IMG/VR virus record: IMGVR_UViG_2703718815_000008
Strand: one strand, 5' to 3'
DNA: 4,823 bases
From: a virus
Taxonomy: Duplodnaviria > Heunggongvirae > Uroviricota > Caudoviricetes
Position numbers and translations under genes: made by a program
Shown: one piece after another, positions 1-4,000 of the stretch
Position numbering within the stretch: position 1 is the stretch's first letter
How the letters are laid out: each line of letters starts with the position of its first letter
The notes under the pieces: generated by a model
The model's input: only the letters and a program-made list of their open reading frames with translations
What the model was told of the DNA's origin: nothing
Database searches by the model: none

Positions 1-61
1 CACCTTCGGGTGGCACGAAAACTGCTGTAATGCAATGAAAAATAATGGATTATTTTTCGCG

Positions 62-90
62 TTGTCCACATATTGCCATAGTGATCTAAT
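62..90 (+). promoter_or_regulatory. Candidate sigma70 promoter for the DUF4177/yidD-like pair (TTGTCC-N17-TCTAAT)
   Basis: Seen in sequence: -35-like TTGTCC (62-67), 17-nt spacer, -10-like TCTAAT (85-90), about 70 nt upstream of the first start codon. The -35 also resembles a DnaA-box (TTGTCCACA vs TTATCCACA). No experimental support. Confidence 0.3.
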
Positions 91-160
91 GCTCGCATCG
101 TGAGGTGCGGGCTGTTTTAGGGCGTTTATTACTGTCTTTTTTATTAAAGGAGCTCAGGTA

Positions 161-403
161 ATGTATACCTATAAAATGATTCAGGTGCCGCCGAATATTT
201 CTGTAAAGGCAAAAGATAATAAAGCGGGGGTAGCTGCTGCATATCTTCAGAATGTTGTTAATGAACAGGCGGCGGATGGCTGGGAATTTCAACGGGTTGA
301 TACGATTGGTATAGAAGAGCAGCCGGGGTGTTTCGGTGGCGGAAAGGCGCAGTTTTTTCAATACTATGTGATTACTTTTAGAAAAAAAGTATCAGATGCT
401 TAA
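161..403 (+). CDS. Small cytoplasmic protein, DUF4177-like (80 aa)
   Basis: ORF with strong RBS AAAGGAG 8 nt upstream of ATG. N-terminal M-Y-x-Y-K and central GWEF...V motif match my recollection of the DUF4177 family. Stop overlaps the start of the next gene by 8 nt (translational coupling). Confidence 0.65.
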   Translation: MYTYKMIQVPPNISVKAKDNKAGVAAAYLQNVVNEQAADGWEFQRVDTIGIEEQPGCFGGGKAQFFQYYVITFRKKVSDA

Positions 404-629
404 ATGGCTTAGTATACGTCTGATTCTTTATTATCGTGCTCATGCGCCAGCCAGCATTCGTAACAGATGTCGTTATACTCCAAGCTGTTCGGCTTACACT
501 TTGGTGTCAATAAGGCGCTATGGCTTTTTTGAAGGCTGGCGATTAGGATTGAGCCGGATTTATCGCTGTCGTCCGCCTAATGGTGGTGCAGATTACCCTC
601 CTCATATTTGTAAATGTCGCAAATCGTGA
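396..629 (+). CDS. yidD: YidD-family protein (membrane protein insertion efficiency factor-like), stand-alone paralog
   Basis: 77-aa ORF carrying the YidD/haemolytic-domain signature: CRYTPSCSAY ... G...GW.LG..RI.RC.P..GGxDxPP. Not in the canonical rnpA-yidD-yidC context; here coupled to a DUF4177-like gene. Confidence 0.85.
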   Translation: MLKWLSIRLILYYRAHAPASIRNRCRYTPSCSAYTLVSIRRYGFFEGWRLGLSRIYRCRPPNGGADYPPHICKCRKS

Positions 630-640
630 GCGCGTAAGAA

Positions 641-680
641 AAAGAAAACCCGCAGTTTTTACGCTGCGGGTTTCTGCTTT
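641..680. terminator. Bidirectional rho-independent terminator shared by the yidD-like operon (+) and the hok mRNA (-)
   Basis: Stem CCCGCAG (649-655) / CTGCGGG (664-670) with 8-nt loop, flanked by an A-tract (641-648) and a T-rich tract (671-680), so it gives a U-tail on either strand. Confidence 0.7.
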
Positions 681-726
681 GGGATGTGTATAGGGTGCCT
701 TATCGGCCTTACCCTGGCAACCGATT

Positions 727-750
727 GACGGGGAAGTTGCCTTCCCCGTC
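727..750. other. Perfect 10-bp stem / 4-nt loop hairpin in the hok 3' UTR (probable mRNA-stabilising or fbi-region stem-loop)
   Basis: GACGGGGAAG-ttgc-CTTCCCCGTC, perfectly complementary arms, immediately downstream of the hok stop codon on the - strand. On the + strand it is followed by GCGGTTTTCTT, so it could also act as a + strand terminator. Confidence 0.5.
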
Positions 751-759
751 GCGGTTTTC

Positions 760-900
760 TTACTGTCTACATTGTAAGAACGCCGCAAACTCCGCTCCCC
801 AGAAGCTCATCCGTATCTCACACAGTGAACCGTGTAGCATCCAGATGATGAGGATTGCCGTTACGCAGAACGTAATGGCCGTAAGCGATTTTTGCGACAT
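760..900 (-). CDS. hok: Hok/Gef-family type I toxin (46 aa), absent from the ORF track because it is under the length cut-off
   Basis: Reverse-complement translation: MSQKSLTAITFCVTAILIIWMLHGSLCEIRMSFWGAEFAAFLQCRQ. One N-terminal transmembrane segment followed by SLCEIR and E.AAF motifs, as in Hok of plasmid R1 (..SLCEIRYRDGHREVAAF..) and E. coli HokA/HokC. SD-like AAGGAG about 8 nt upstream. Confidence 0.85.
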   Translation of the reverse strand: MSQKSLTAITFCVTAILIIWMLHGSLCEIRMSFWGAEFAAFLQCRQ

Positions 901-1003
901 AGCGCTTGCTCCTTTTTCGGGGAGGCGCTAACCTACGACTTGCGAAGGTTGTATGGCTAGGGCCTCGGGTTAACGTTAAAGTTGACTCGGGGCCTTTCCA
1001 CAT
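818..1003 (-). CDS. mok: mok-like overlapping reading frame (modulation of killing) of the hok locus
   Basis: 61-codon frame starting at ATG 1003 and overlapping the first 83 nt of hok in a different frame, as in mok/hok of R1. Its start lies upstream of the conserved leader hairpin, unlike R1, so the exact start is uncertain. Confidence 0.4.
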   Translation of the reverse strand: MWKGPESTLTLTRGPSHTTFASRRLAPPRKRSKRYVAKIAYGHYVLRNGNPHHLDATRFTV

Positions 1004-1008
1004 TCGGC
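941..1008 (+). ncRNA. sok: Predicted Sok-like antisense RNA (about 65 nt)
   Basis: Inference by analogy to R1 Sok. Candidate + strand promoter TTGCTC (906-911)-N17-TAACCT (929-934), TSS near 941. Imperfect hairpin 961-994 (GGCCTCGGG...CTCGGGGCC) followed by a U-rich stretch (995-1004). Antisense to the hok leader and mok start. Boundaries approximate. Confidence 0.3.
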
Positions 1009-1053
1009 CTTCGGGTATTCCCTCCAGCCATCAGCCGAAAGGCACCCGCGCGA

Positions 1054-1083
1054 ATTCTAGCCTGGTTTTTTCCCTTGTTTCAA
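1054..1083 (-). promoter_or_regulatory. Predicted hok promoter (TTGAAA-N18-TAGAAT on the - strand)
   Basis: -35 TTGAAA (rc of 1078-1083), -10 TAGAAT (rc of 1054-1059), giving a TSS near 1048. The predicted 5' end GGGUGCC (rc of 1041-1047) is perfectly complementary to GGCACCC (rc of 693-699) in the 3' UTR, matching the tac/fbi end-pairing typical of hok mRNAs. Predicted mRNA about 400 nt, as for R1 hok. Confidence 0.45.
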
Positions 1084-1087
1084 TCCG

Positions 1088-1117
1088 TTGAGACTTATCA
1101 GCCTTCTGATGTAAAAT
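1088..1117 (+). promoter_or_regulatory. Candidate + strand promoter divergent from the hok promoter (TTGAGA-N18-TAAAAT)
   Basis: -35 TTGAGA (1088-1093), -10 TAAAAT (1112-1117) with TG immediately upstream. Would give a transcript of about 64 nt ending at the 1164-1187 terminator. Confidence 0.3.
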
Positions 1118-1163
1118 TCCCGACCGCAGACATTATTCAGTCACGCATTTGATACATGCTTCC

Positions 1164-1187
1164 GCCGGCGTTCGCGCCGGTTTTTTT
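1164..1187 (+). terminator. Rho-independent terminator (+ strand)
   Basis: GC-rich stem GCCGGCG (1164-1170) / CGCCGGC with loop TTCG, followed by T7 (1181-1187). On the - strand there is no U-tract after the stem, so it is oriented for + strand transcripts. Confidence 0.6.
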
Positions 1188-1355
1188 CGTCCTGTTGCTG
1201 CATAGATCGTCATGCGCGATCGAGGCGCGGTATTGATCCTTTTTTCAGTTTAATTTTGACTCTCAATTTTACGCAGGCCGCGCCGCGTCTGGCTTCGTTG
1301 TTTGACGATTTTTTGATGCGATCCTTTCGTGATCGTTTCCCGTCTCGCGTAAAGT

Positions 1356-1451
1356 ATGAAAACTCTTTTAATATCATGCGGTTTTATTGCCCCTGCCATT
1401 TATGCGATCGTAAAAACCACTCTGAAAACTGCAAAAAATTTCAAAGCGTGA
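1356..1451 (+). CDS. Hypothetical 31-aa hydrophobic peptide (speculative small membrane protein or type I toxin-like ORF)
   Basis: ATG...TGA frame translating to MKTLLISCGFIAPAIYAIVKTTLKTAKNFKA: a hydrophobic core plus a Lys-rich C-terminal tail. Weak or absent SD and rare codons (ATA, TTA). The 3' end overlaps a perfect palindrome. May be non-coding. Confidence 0.15.
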   Translation: MKTLLISCGFIAPAIYAIVKTTLKTAKNFKA

Positions 1452-1563
1452 AATTTCAGATCTCCGCTTTTCCCTCAGTTGCTGCGCGGGCTGGCGGTCA
1501 GTTTTGCACGGCAGAAAACTGAAAAAGTGTTTCGACACAAAACCCGCGGGTTGGAGGGGGTAG

Positions 1564-1613
1564 CGCGGTTTACGTCACCTCACACTTTACGTCACACCGT
1601 TTACGCGGTGTGT
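1564..1613. repeat. Iteron-like direct repeats (TTTACGTCAC x2 plus TTTACGCGG) with an embedded 7-bp inverted repeat
   Basis: Seen in sequence: TTTACGTCAC at 1569-1578 and 1586-1595, TTTACGCGG at 1600-1608 (spacings 17 and 14 bp). Inverted repeat CACACCG (1593-1599) / CGGTGTG (1607-1613). Function unknown. Confidence 0.5.
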
Positions 1614-1665
1614 GCATACAGCGCCGGAATGGCACGCAGAACGCATTAATCAGGTGGTGGATATG

Positions 1666-1692
1666 AAAAACGCACGGTCGGAACCGTGCGTT
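1666..1692 (-). terminator. Rho-independent terminator of the - strand operon (downstream of the 565-aa gene)
   Basis: Stem AACGCACGG (1669-1677) / CCGTGCGTT (1684-1692) with loop TCGGAA. On the - strand the stem is followed by a U5 tract (complement of A1666-1670), about 40 nt after the stop codon at 1731-1733. Confidence 0.55.
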
Positions 1693-1730: not shown

Positions 1731-3428
1731 TCAGGCGATAAGGTCGCCGTATTTTTCGCGCAGGCTCGTAGCCTGCAGGGCATCTGCGGCAAGTTCGCCG
1801 CTGTTCATTGGTGCGCCAGTGTTGTTGTGGGTGTGGTTTGCTGTGTGCGTGGCCAGCAATTGAATCAGATCCAGAATATCAATCAACAACGTCAGCAGAT
1901 TAAGTTCGGATTTTTCCCGTGAGCCACCGCGACCAATAAATACTGTCGGGGCTGTAAACTTCAGACCGCCGTCCGCCCGGCATGTTCTGCGGCCTCCCAC
2001 GTTTTCAGTCAGGTCCTGCTCAATTGTGGATATTGTCCCTTTGAGTTTAGTCAGCAAATCCTGCGCTACCATCTGGATATGCTCGCTGGCTGCGATCGCG
2101 TAATGGCCGGTAGTAAGGTGCTCTATTTGTCCTGCCGCCAGCTTGCTGGTTCCCAGAACACTGGTTATGTCGTTTGCCCGTACTGTGGTTGTTCTGGTTG
2201 TTGTGGTGCGCTCTTCTGCATCACTGTTAATTGTGCGGGTGGCTGACTGCTCCCTGATTTGCTGGTCTGTTTCTCTGTGCCAGCTTCCGTCAGTCGTGAC
2301 GCGCTGAAACACTTCTGCGCGCTGTTGCTGCAGTTGTTCGCCGGGCTTTACATCAGGCAGGTTATGGCCAGCAGGTAAGATTTGCCTGATAACAGGTTTA
2401 TCCGGGCGCCCTTCAATGTTAGATATTTCCACGATGGTGCCTGCCGGCGGGTAGGCAAAACATCCCGCCTCGCTACCAGCCATCGGGACGGGGAGTGGGA
2501 CTGCCGGGTAAACAGGCGTATCGCTTTTATCGTTGCCGTCCTCATCGAGCAGTTGCACGTCCACGGCGTAGCGTGGACGGAAGCTGTCGGCCACATCGCC
2601 CAGGGTGGCGGATTCCGTTGGTGCAATGACGCGCGCCAGCCTGGTGTGTAGTGTGCCGCTGGCCAGTTCCGGGAACTGTGTTTCCATCTGTCTGCGTAAT
2701 GGTGATTTGGAGACAGGGCTGCCCGTGACGGTAAGGCGCTCCCACGTCAGAGTCATTTTCTCGTTGTTGAGGGCTACGCGGGTAATACGCCCGGTGGGAA
2801 GATTCACGCCCGGTCGCACAGTTTCCATGAACATGATGTCGATGCTGTTTCCGCCGCTTTGCCCGAGAGCGTACTGTTGCGGAATATCCGGCATCGTAAT
2901 ACTGGCAAATCGTGAATCAGCGGCGCTTCCCACAAATACAGAACCGTCCGGCATTGGGTGCCAGACGTAATCGCTGATACTGAATGCGCGCCCCAGCTGG
3001 CTGAGTAGCTGCGTTCCGCTGCCGCTGTGGGTGATGTAGGGGGTTGGTGTGTTGACATAATCCGCGTCCGGGGTGATAAAAACGATGCCGCTTTGTCGTC
3101 CCAGATTATCTAACACCTCCCGCAACGTCGGGTGTTGCATGGAGCAGGGGAAATCAAAATCCAGCACAGCAGCTGCTTCACGGATAAAAAGGCGGCGCGA
3201 ACCATTTTCGGCGGGTTGGTCGCGTTCAACGTAGCCGGAGAAATAGCGCCAGACTTCACCGTCACGGCCGAGATCAATTTGTACCATTGCGCCGGCAAGG
3301 CTTTTTTCTGGTGACAGATTATTAACAGAAATGAAGCCACGACCGGCAGCATTCAGGGTAAGAACAAGGCTTATATCGGCAATTTCCACCCGTTCGCCAT
3401 TAATCATGCAGCGTTGTATCAATTTCAT
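1731..3428 (-). CDS. Hypothetical 565-aa protein; tentatively a phage-tail-like structural protein (baseplate hub/spike- or fibre-like), last gene of the operon
   Basis: Long ORF with strong RBS GAGGAAGGG and an ATGA start/stop overlap with the upstream gene. No Walker A motif, no signal peptide. Thr-rich tract TTTTRTTTV and His-rich C-terminal segment LIQLLATHTANHTHNNTG (HxH-type motifs occur at metal-binding tips of trimeric phage spikes and fibres). An N-terminal segment, FSGYVE...TLREVLDNL...GIVF, loosely resembles gpD/gp27/VgrG hub motifs. Product is inference only. Confidence 0.8.
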   Translation of the reverse strand: MKLIQRCMINGERVEIADISLVLTLNAAGRGFISVNNLSPEKSLAGAMVQIDLGRDGEVWRYFSGYVERDQPAENGSRRLFIREAAAVLDFDFPCSMQHPTLREVLDNLGRQSGIVFITPDADYVNTPTPYITHSGSGTQLLSQLGRAFSISDYVWHPMPDGSVFVGSAADSRFASITMPDIPQQYALGQSGGNSIDIMFMETVRPGVNLPTGRITRVALNNEKMTLTWERLTVTGSPVSKSPLRRQMETQFPELASGTLHTRLARVIAPTESATLGDVADSFRPRYAVDVQLLDEDGNDKSDTPVYPAVPLPVPMAGSEAGCFAYPPAGTIVEISNIEGRPDKPVIRQILPAGHNLPDVKPGEQLQQQRAEVFQRVTTDGSWHRETDQQIREQSATRTINSDAEERTTTTRTTTVRANDITSVLGTSKLAAGQIEHLTTGHYAIAASEHIQMVAQDLLTKLKGTISTIEQDLTENVGGRRTCRADGGLKFTAPTVFIGRGGSREKSELNLLTLLIDILDLIQLLATHTANHTHNNTGAPMNSGELAADALQATSLREKYGDLIA

Positions 3429-4000
3429 GTTTTCCCTTCCTCTTTCACGCTCCCGATGCCAACAGCATCCAGACCAGAGCCAACGGCATCATTGATTTTT
3501 TTCCAGAACGAACTTTGCGTATTCATGCCTTTGTCTGGTGCCTGTTCGCTACCGTTCTGGGTCTGCTGTCTGGCGATGGTTTTCTGCGAACCGCTGCGTG
3601 CGGATGCTTTCTCTGGCACGCTTAATTTTTCCCTGAGAGTAAAGGTAACCTGCCAGTGCATTTTTCCCTGTTGTTCCGTGGCATCAATGCCACCAGAAAA
3701 TACCCCCTGTCGCATATTGATTGCCTTCGCGGTAGCGTTAGCAATGCGATATGTTTTTTTAGCACCGTTGCTTTCTGTTGCCTCCGCAAGCTGAAAAATA
3801 CGGGTCAGAATAGCTTCATCATTAAAATCAATAACCCCCGACACGCGCAGCTCTTTAGCCTTGTTTCCCTGCTGGGCGCTCGTGGTGCTGGTTGACTGTC
3901 CGGACATATCTTTGTCCGGTAGTTGCATGGTGGCGCTGACGGTGATGTTGCGCAGCAGAATGGCTTCCCCGTCAAGCGCAAGGACAATCATCTGGGTCAT
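3425..4000 (-). CDS. Hypothetical 191-aa protein (Ser/Thr/Gln/Gly-rich; possibly a phage-tail-associated structural protein)
   Basis: ORF with excellent RBS AAGGGAGG 7 nt upstream of ATG 4000. Stop overlaps the start of the 565-aa gene (ATGA). No signal peptide, transmembrane segment or nucleotide-binding motif. Product unknown. Confidence 0.75.
   Translation of the reverse strand: MTQMIVLALDGEAILLRNITVSATMQLPDKDMSGQSTSTTSAQQGNKAKELRVSGVIDFNDEAILTRIFQLAEATESNGAKKTYRIANATAKAINMRQGVFSGGIDATEQQGKMHWQVTFTLREKLSVPEKASARSGSQKTIARQQTQNGSEQAPDKGMNTQSSFWKKINDAVGSGLDAVGIGSVKEEGKT

Follow-up and report, generated by a model that had tools for sequence, protein, structure and literature searches.

The window, by which we mean the whole 4,823-nucleotide stretch of DNA analysed here, ends within a phage tail module. 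Its minus strand carries three late (tail) genes that end at 1731, encoding a protein like HP1 ORF35, a protein of the HP1 ORF34 family and a third product of 237 aa. To the left of about 1235 lie a hok/sok-type toxin locus (Hok ORF at 760-900) and two small cargo ORFs, of which one resembles YidD. A sub-threshold match to sok within the hok locus was the sole Rfam result for the whole window, and no tRNA or tmRNA genes were found in it. The intervening DNA is rich in repeats and palindromes, and is referred to below as the block. Three ORFs that run over it (1256-1522, plus strand; 1374-1538, minus strand; 1479-1649, plus strand) were not taken for genes, because indels between its conserved parts break the reading frame. 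The features of the locus are as follows.

1235-1730: conserved noncoding region of about 500 bp, very probably a cos region, flanked by the last tail gene and the variable cargo
1549-1563: predicted cohesive-end segment (cosN), GGTTGGAGGGGGTAG, placed by homology, with boundaries to within about 2 nt either way
1541-1552: palindrome AACCCGCGGGTT, overlapping the predicted left cut
1569-1578, plus strand: direct repeat 1, TTTACGTCAC, starting 6 nt to the right of the predicted cohesive end; a candidate cosB-like terminase site
1586-1595, plus strand: direct repeat 2, TTTACGTCAC, 17 nt after repeat 1 and an exact copy of it
1600-1605, plus strand: direct repeat 3, TTTACG, 14 nt after repeat 2, forming the loop of CACACCG/CGGTGTG
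1593-1612: inverted repeat CACACCG-N6-CGGTGTG (arms at 1593-1599 and 1606-1612), lineage-specific
1527-1538: GTGTttcgACAC, a GTGT/ACAC hairpin in the variable spacer from the A-rich box to the predicted cosN
1515-1526, plus strand: A-rich box AAAACTGAAAAA, 22 nt to the left of the predicted cohesive end
1425-1436, plus strand: second A-rich box, AAAACTGCAAAA, a direct repeat in the window
1241-1252, minus strand: inverted A-rich box, reading TAAACTGAAAAA on that strand, at the left margin of the conserved block
1348-1353, minus strand: inverted TTTACG (CGTAAA on the plus strand), inside the conserved stretch CTCRCGTAAAGTAT
1235-1242, plus strand: GATCCTTT box 1, in the GATC cluster, forming an exact 8-mer pair with box 2
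1320-1327, plus strand: GATCCTTT box 2, exact 8-mer partner of box 1
1669-1692, minus strand: intrinsic terminator of the tail operon, a stem of 10 pairs with a T run after it, separating the ORF35-like gene from the predicted cos
1731-3428, minus strand: HP1 ORF35-like baseplate gene ('Vgr family' in RefSeq), 565 aa, the last late gene before the predicted cos
3425-4000, minus strand: baseplate complex protein of the HP1 ORF34 family, 191 aa (Pfam PF25759 HP1_ORF34, E = 9.7e-54)

Direct reading of the sequence located every repeat and palindrome that an earlier note on this DNA had listed, and the exact 10-mer pair TTTACGTCAC was recovered independently by a repeat search of the window. TTTACG occurs seven times in the window against an expectation of 2.2, a number reached by none of 200 shuffles, and six of the seven copies fall within 1268-1605. 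Matches to the A-rich box number four against 0.8 expected, and half of the window's 14 GATC sites are packed into the 258 bp from 1205 to 1462. In first-order Markov simulations a perfect 12-bp palindrome (1.6 expected per window) and a perfect 7-bp stem (2.1 expected) were each unremarkable alone, while an exact 10-mer repeated within 30 nt was uncommon (0.16 expected); the three together within 90 bp appeared in none of 300 simulations. The cluster is thus real and non-random, and its conservation is a stronger support than these tests of chance.

Genomic setting and conservation

In E. coli AJ1 the block is part of a P2-family prophage that sits between pdxB and flk, with the gene order int, repressor, Cox, replication endonuclease, Ogr, portal, terminase, capsid, tail, 'Vgr', block, hok, DUF4875, flk. 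This prophage is 97% identical and encodes both the terminase large subunit and a gpM small subunit, and it seems to continue past the block through hok and the DUF4875 gene up to flk. The same type of phage occupies another chromosomal site in ETEC1717, where the cargo consists of a YafO toxin-antitoxin pair and a nuclease, and where homology begins at window position 1235, the point at which the cargo diverges. The cargo beside the block thus differs by genome, being hok, the YafO pair with a nuclease, or DUF4875. Because of the contexts in AJ1 and ETEC1717, the block was assigned to the phage backbone, bordering the variable cargo. The prophage of the window, of which the window includes only three tail genes, may be defective.

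Of 5426 complete E. coli genomes, 50 carry the 631-bp intergenic sequence between the cargo and the late genes, at 90-96% identity; the part of it at 1235-1730 is 93-96% identical in about 50 genomes. All of these copies are chromosomal, with a median of one per genome, and no annotation lies beneath them. The block is uninterrupted in prophages at three chromosomal loci, namely pdxB-flk (AJ1), near raiA (ETEC1717) and argW (the satellite-like island described below), and it is present as a single copy per phage genome. A scan of genome contigs with the ORF35-like protein returned 3 loci only.

A search pattern built from two invariant stretches retrieved 26 IMG/VR contigs, which together with the other loci gave 20 distinct variants of the core: 17 of Escherichia type, two Edwardsiella types and L009. 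The stretch 1541-1575 (AACCCGCGGGTTGGAGGGGGTAGCGCGGTTTACGT, running from AACCCGCGGG to GGTTTACGT) is invariant in all 17 Escherichia-type variants, including L031, which is 75% identical overall. Further afield, the core is recognisable in phages of Edwardsiella, Salmonella, Cronobacter, Aeromonas and Vibrio, and in Edwardsiella prophages, whose 'Vgr' protein is 60% identical, patchy but clear conserved stretches extend over 1235-1575. The centre of the palindrome, CCCGCGGG, is invariant in both Escherichia and Edwardsiella types, and at its position ESSI-2, phiO18P and PV94 have an interrupted G+C-rich dyad (CCCGC-AG-GCGGG in phiO18P), at or near the centre of which the cohesive end of these phages begins.

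In direct repeat 1, GGTTTACGT is retained in Escherichia and Edwardsiella types and has counterparts in phiO18P and PV94 (GGATTCCGT), HP1 (GGATTTTCCGT) and ESSI-2 (CCGTTTTTGT); the TTTACG core of repeat 2 survives in L031, and the TTTACG of repeat 3 is found in 16 of the 17 Escherichia-type variants. Edwardsiella types, phiO18P and HP1 have three (A/T)TT(A/C)CGTG-type repeats in the same place, spaced 16-17 and 12-14 nt apart as counted on the alignment. To the left of the core, the AAAACTGAAAAA box is identical in Edwardsiella types, L009, S.Kent, ESSI-2 and PV94, with TAACTGAAAAAA as its version in HP1; the second A-rich box is kept in Edwardsiella types and in satellite copies, phiO18P having TTTTGCAAAAAA near its cos, and the inverted box at 1241 is kept in all aligned sequences. 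The CGTAAAG-containing stretch at 1348 is among the best-conserved parts of this left arm, and the GATCCTTT octamer recurs to the left of cos in ESSI-2 and phiO18P.

The two small hairpins follow another pattern. The outer pair of the GTGT/ACAC hairpin is broken (CTGT...ACAC) in many variants, L031 has ATATTTCGATAT, and no such dyad was present in the Edwardsiella types on the alignment. The stem of CACACCG/CGGTGTG is disrupted by single uncompensated changes in several Escherichia-type variants, two satellite copies each show one compensatory change from A:T to G:C, and the element was not present in Edwardsiella, ESSI-2, phiO18P or HP1 on the anchored alignment. Both hairpins are probably incidental or lineage-specific.

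Copies of the block also reside outside complete phages. Two IMG/VR contigs of about 12 kb (L027 and L012) and, in E. coli STEC316, an island at argW carry it at 79% identity. These satellite-like islands encode an AlpA or HTH regulator, a P2-family capsid, an Icd-like protein, a toprim primase, integrases, ogr/Delta and hok, and no tail genes were found in the three of them. Their copies retain the predicted cosN, the three repeats and the terminator. The argW-type island occurs in nine E. coli genomes, and STEC316 holds a helper-type copy of the block as well.

Homology to the genome ends of HP1-like phages

The block is very probably the cos site of an HP1-like (Peduoviridae) temperate phage of the P2 family that is present as a prophage. 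A cos site is a known kind of element; the copy here is without annotation. The identification draws on position and on homology: the block occupies the position of the experimentally defined cos sites of HP1-like phages, and its sequence is homologous to them. In the complete genomes of HP1, phiO18P, PV94 and ESSI-2, no substantial gene follows the ORF35 homologue, and the record ends about 160-200 nt past it, the corresponding distance from the ORF35-like gene to the predicted cohesive end being 167 nt in the window. Gene order through ORF34-ORF35 to the genome end and the attP-int side is the same in these four phages as in the lineage of the window, and tblastn placed the ORF35 homologue at the record end in most linear records of the HP1-like group. 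Identity of the ORF35-like protein by tblastn was 41% to HP1, 40% to HP2, 38% to phiO18P and 48% to ESSI-2. The ends of the four records are arranged as follows.

HP1: orf35 stop at 32163; record end at 32355; cosL annotated at 1-9; attP at 251-694, int from 698
phiO18P: gene stop at 33770; 16-nt cos at both ends, cosR at 33970-33985; tRNA-like att region, then int
ESSI-2: gene begins about 183-199 nt inside the record; GCGGGTGCGGTGTAG (15 nt) at both ends; int at the far end
PV94: last gene stop at 33666; record end at 33828; int at the opposite record end

The ends of PV94 have been determined by run-off sequencing as 16-nt 5' overhangs (PMC3986222), and Lavigne et al. noted that the cos sites of HP1 and HP2 adjoin attP and not the portal gene, unlike that of P2 (PMC2771037). 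K139, a member of the wider group, is reported to have terminally redundant ends and not cos (PMC3986222), so end structure is not uniform across the family.

A distant blastn search of the block against phage records returned one fragmentary Salmonella contig only, and the link to characterised phages therefore came via protein and profile searches. An nhmmer profile was built solely from sequences of the window's own lineage (the equivalent of window 1300-1640) and run against the four complete genomes with their ends joined. The best match spanned the end junction in ESSI-2 (E=9e-43), PV94 (9e-9) and phiO18P (1e-6), each of which gave a single strong match; AT-rich HP1 gave no significant match (E about 3-4), and its support is confined to synteny and motif layout.

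An alignment anchored on the recorded ends revealed a common right boundary, at which (T/G)AG is followed across the cut by (C/T)GC(G/C)G, and because of this shared boundary the right end of the cohesive sequence in the window was placed between 1563 and 1564. The left end of the predicted cohesive sequence falls at about 1548/1549 on the same alignment. GGTTGGAGGGGGTAG aligns to GCGGGTGCGGTGTAG of ESSI-2, to the annotated 16-nt cos of phiO18P, GGCGGGAGCGGATGAG, and to the PV94 end, GGCGGGTGAGGAAGAG. The cut positions in the window are accordingly predictions taken from relatives whose ORF35-like proteins are 38-48% identical. The cohesive end attributed to ESSI-2 is likewise a reading of its duplicated record termini, which match the trace expected in a record after the filling-in of a 5' overhang. 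The ESSI2_ev015 record stops at ...CAGGCGGGTGC and restarts at GTAGCGCC after a Nextera adapter remnant, within the same core, and the two halves of this core are contiguous in a Salmonella contig.

Since the cos of P2 adjoins the portal gene, the corresponding part of the AJ1 prophage is also of interest. There, the ogr gene next to the portal gene is flanked on each side by only 66-69 bp of noncoding DNA, and these spacers contained no convincing cos-like sequence. A weak match containing GGGGAAAG, which shares 12 of 19 bases with P2 cos in the opposite orientation and abuts the portal stop, was judged to be due to chance.

The earlier note had proposed a dense multi-site protein-binding region, possibly marking a boundary, and this description has held: the block is a conserved cis-acting site, putatively protein-binding, between the structural module and the variable cargo, and would contain the end of the virion genome.

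Other readings of the block

An operator or promoter, for example one serving Ogr/Delta-dependent or repressor-controlled transcription of the cargo, could be present instead of or besides cos, as the block is a conserved noncoding region next to variable cargo and ogr/Delta is encoded nearby in the satellite-like islands. The late-promoter consensus of P2 is a TGT-N12-ACA dyad. No such dyad was seen by eye, no promoter-like site was found in 1190-1660, and conservation is centred on the genome-end core and not on a -35/-10 geometry. This reading, which the earlier note had also entertained as the operator of some regulator, is very unlikely.

Short repeated motifs with A-rich boxes, and seven GATC sites in 258 bp, would also suit an iteron origin of replication, at which an initiator would bind TTTACG and AAAACTGAAAAA and the GATC cluster would confer control by Dam and SeqA, as at oriC. 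The P2 replication origin, however, lies inside gene A, and this phage family is one of rolling-circle Rep proteins: a Rep that acts by 'nicking at origin' is annotated in HP1, phiO18P, ESSI-2 and PV94, the related prophage has a gene for a replication endonuclease of the P2 A type, and no iteron-type initiator gene was found in the window. No canonical DnaA box was seen by eye in 1235-1730, the satellite copies keep the TTTACG array without most of the GATC boxes, and the block maps exactly onto the genome ends of relatives. Because of gene content and this mapping to genome ends, the iteron origin suggested in the earlier note was rejected as highly improbable.

Direct repeats with dyads recall the architecture of attachment sites, and the attP of HP1-like phages lies within a few hundred bp of cos. 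An attachment or recombination site was among the suggestions of the earlier note, and could take the form of attP or attR with arm-type integrase repeats and a core dyad at the island boundary. An attachment site would be split by integration, however, and the block is intact inside the integrated prophages examined, at the three chromosomal sites named above; moreover, the attP sites of HP1 and phiO18P are annotated separately, 250-700 nt away on the int side. The probability of this reading is accordingly minimal.

That the intergenic region is transcribed into a structured noncoding RNA or an sRNA, as some 500 bp of conserved but noncoding sequence and the several stems in it might suggest, is scarcely credible: a scan of 1100-1730 against Rfam gave no match at E<=1, folding of 1527-1615 and of 1490-1630 on both strands was no better than that of shuffled sequences (z -0.07 to -1.25), the stems are not kept across relatives, and the block lies downstream of the operon terminator. 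Finally, G+C-rich palindromes in intergenic DNA could suggest a dispersed repeat of the REP/ERIC type, which the earlier note had named as grounds for refuting its own reading. Membership of such a family can be dismissed outright given the number of E. coli genomes and copies reported above and the finding that, in the genomes examined, every copy adjoins the ORF35-like gene in a prophage or sits in a satellite-like island.

Proposed function and comparison with known cos sites

With the block read as cos, its working can be outlined from established knowledge of cos phages. During lytic growth, a P2-type terminase, comprising a gpM-type small and a gpP-type large subunit, would bind the cos region and make two staggered nicks about 15-16 nt apart, roughly at 1548/1549 and 1563/1564. 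The nicks would yield 5' cohesive ends (GGTTGGAGGGGGTAG), at which packaging would start, and after injection the ends would anneal and the genome would circularise. The G+C-rich palindrome is predicted from the sequence to mark the left cut, and the three TTTACG repeats to the right of the cut may form a cosB-like array recognised by the small terminase subunit. The A-rich and GATCCTTT boxes of the left arm are candidate accessory sites that could act in binding, bending or termination, and the GATCCTTT cluster might add Dam-dependent control, by analogy with the pac site of P1.

A more extended proposal is that the triple repeat, TTTACG here and TT(C/A)CGTG in HP1, phiO18P and Edwardsiella phages, with spacings of 16-17 and 12-14 nt, is a conserved and co-evolving cosB-type array for the gpM-type small terminase that sets packaging specificity and has been copied by capsid-encoding P4-like satellites so as to parasitise HP1-like helpers in E. 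coli. This proposal is tentative and more probably wrong than right in its full form. We know of no cosB-type repeat array defined so far for the HP1/P2 family, and a literature search returned nothing specific on gpM binding sites. What is modestly new is the conserved three-repeat array beside the cut, together with the capsid-encoding satellite-like islands that have the same site. Judging by its sequence, the site is common to phage and satellite-like islands, which parallels the use of P2 cos by P4; P4 shares the cos of P2, and the variable hotspots of both adjoin it (PMC9122126).

Identification of the block as cos reveals no new kind of biology. It does account for some 500 bp of repeat-rich intergenic sequence that lacks annotation and recurs in about 1% of complete E. 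coli genomes, predicts where the virion genome has its two ends in this prophage lineage, and explains why variable cargo (hok/sok, the YafO toxin-antitoxin, nucleases) builds up nearby, as in the hotspots of P2 and P4. The signature AAAACTGAAAAA-N14-AACCCGCGGG...GTAGCGCGGTTTACG could help to establish the orientation of prophage assemblies and to detect satellite-like islands that have the same site and may rely on this lineage of phages; it could also serve in the construction of cos plasmids for transduction.

Among characterised systems, ESSI-2, taken together with the ends of the ESSI2_ev phages, is the closest sequenced phage with informative ends, and its whole left arm aligns with that of the block (CGCATAAAAT, AAAACTCTTTTAAT, GATCCTTT and AAAACTGAAAAA). 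The right-arm repeats of ESSI-2, a phage of Cronobacter, are GTTTTTGT/ATTTTGTG, whereas those of the block are TTTACG, and the ORF35-like proteins are only 48% identical. The sites of Aeromonas phage phiO18P and Vibrio phage PV94 resemble the block in their position after the ORF35-like gene and before attP/int, in a homologous core, GGCGGG(A/T)G(C/A)GG(A/-)(T/A)GAG against GGTTGGAGGGGGTAG here, and in a right boundary at which AG is followed across the cut by YGCGG and then by a (T/A)TT(A/C)CGTG repeat; PV94 also has the AAAACTGAAAAA box. However, about half of the bases of the cohesive end differ, the repeat unit is TTCCGTGG in these phages and TTTACG(TCAC) in the block, the left dyad of the block is uninterrupted (CCCGCGGG), and hosts and neighbouring cargo also differ. 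Haemophilus phage HP1 (NC_001697), the prototype of the group, has the identical order ORF34-ORF35-cos-attP-int and the same layout, in which AACTGAAAAAA is followed after about 25 nt by a G-rich end (GGGGAAGGA) and then by three TTT(C/A)CGTG repeats, spaced by 17 and 13 nt against 17 and 14 nt in the block. It differs in its AT-rich sequence and its shorter annotated cohesive end (9 nt in the record).

The cos of P2 lies beside the portal gene Q, whereas the block lies beside the last tail gene on the attP side (PMC2771037), and direct comparison of P2 cos with the block gave no significant sequence similarity. The two sites are nonetheless alike in having an A run, a G+C-rich dyad and a G-rich cohesive end (the 19-nt GGCGAGGCGGGGAAAGCAC in P2/P4), followed in P2 too by about 165 nt, terminator included, that lead up to a late gene of the other strand. 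The P2 terminator tQ, between Q and cos, is equivalent to that of the block, and a G+C-rich hairpin directly to the left of P2 cos can be compared with the palindrome. In both cases the site is common to helper and satellite, and a hotspot of variable cargo adjoins it.

A further comparison is with phage lambda, whose terminase family and sequences are unrelated. In lambda cosB, the sites R1-R3 for the small terminase gpNu1 lie beside cosN. Like lambda cosB, the block would have three short repeats on one side of its nicking site, and it is by analogy with the three R sites that the TTTACG array is read as a set of putative terminase sites.

Genes and signals to the left of the cos block

Several features lie in the variable cargo region of the window and at its junction with the conserved noncoding block read as a cos site (1235-1730).

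161-629, plus strand: two small, overlapping cargo ORFs
645-1083, minus strand: hok/sok-type toxin-antitoxin locus
760-900, minus strand: Hok ORF (Pfam HOK_GEF, E=4e-7)
1083-1054, minus strand: promoter-like site of the hok/sok-type locus
674-645, minus strand: terminator of the hok/sok-type locus
within 1088-1188, plus strand: promoter-like site, TTGAGA-18-TAAAAT (10/12 matches)
1164-1181, plus strand: strong terminator, then a run of 7 T, downstream of TTGAGA-18-TAAAAT
1235 and 1320: two GATCCTTT octamers, part of a GATC cluster

The products of the two plus-strand ORFs, of 80 and 77 aa, match DUF4177 (weakly) and the YidD family (E=8e-18), respectively, and a prophage-borne YidD homologue is unusual. 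In the record of phage P88, the same cargo segment (window 15-1059; 88% identity) is located terminally. Many Stx and P88-like phages have homologues of the adjoining hok/sok-type locus, as do ~1600 of 5426 E. coli genomes; the Rfam sok match at 887-1047 is sub-threshold (36.7 bits vs a gathering score of 59). Between this locus and the cos block, the plus-strand promoter-like site and terminator would together give rise to a transcript of ~60 nt, and the terminator is found also in two IMG/VR variants (L023 and L031). No Rfam match was obtained for 1088-1188.

Satellite-like islands and cargo beside cos

The same cos element is borne by satellite-like islands of ~12 kb. Besides ogr/Delta and hok, these code for a major capsid protein of the P2 family, an Icd-like protein, a toprim primase and two integrases. 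Of the 5426 E. coli genomes, 9 have such an island.

L027 1-12061: island on an IMG/VR contig
L012: island on a further IMG/VR contig
L050 1888-13790: island at argW of E. coli STEC316

Besides its argW island, STEC316 has a helper-type prophage with a further copy of the cos block. The cargo between cos and att/int differs from phage to phage, as illustrated by two examples.

L003 3597-7062, E. coli ETEC1717: YafO toxin-antitoxin pair, ATP-dependent nuclease, methyltransferase fragment
L038 697-2449, phage ESSI2_ev015: serine acetyltransferase, small ORFs

In its behavior, this interval resembles the P2/P4 defense hotspot that adjoins cos.

A physical DNA end and the GATC cluster

At the start of the RefSeq record of Escherichia phage ESSI2_ev015 (NC_049395.1; L037 1-49), junk and then a Nextera adapter remnant, TCGTCGGCAGCGTCAGATGTGTATAAGAGACAG, precede the true left end of the phage, which starts at GTAGCGCC. 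This opening is a database artifact that by chance marks the physical DNA end.

Seven of the 14 GATC sites in the window fall within 258 bp (1205-1462). The GATCCTTT octamers of this cluster recur to the left of cos in the related phages ESSI-2 and phiO18P, and the satellite copies are without most of the cluster's boxes. The pac site of phage P1 is Dam-regulated, and the cluster is reminiscent of it.
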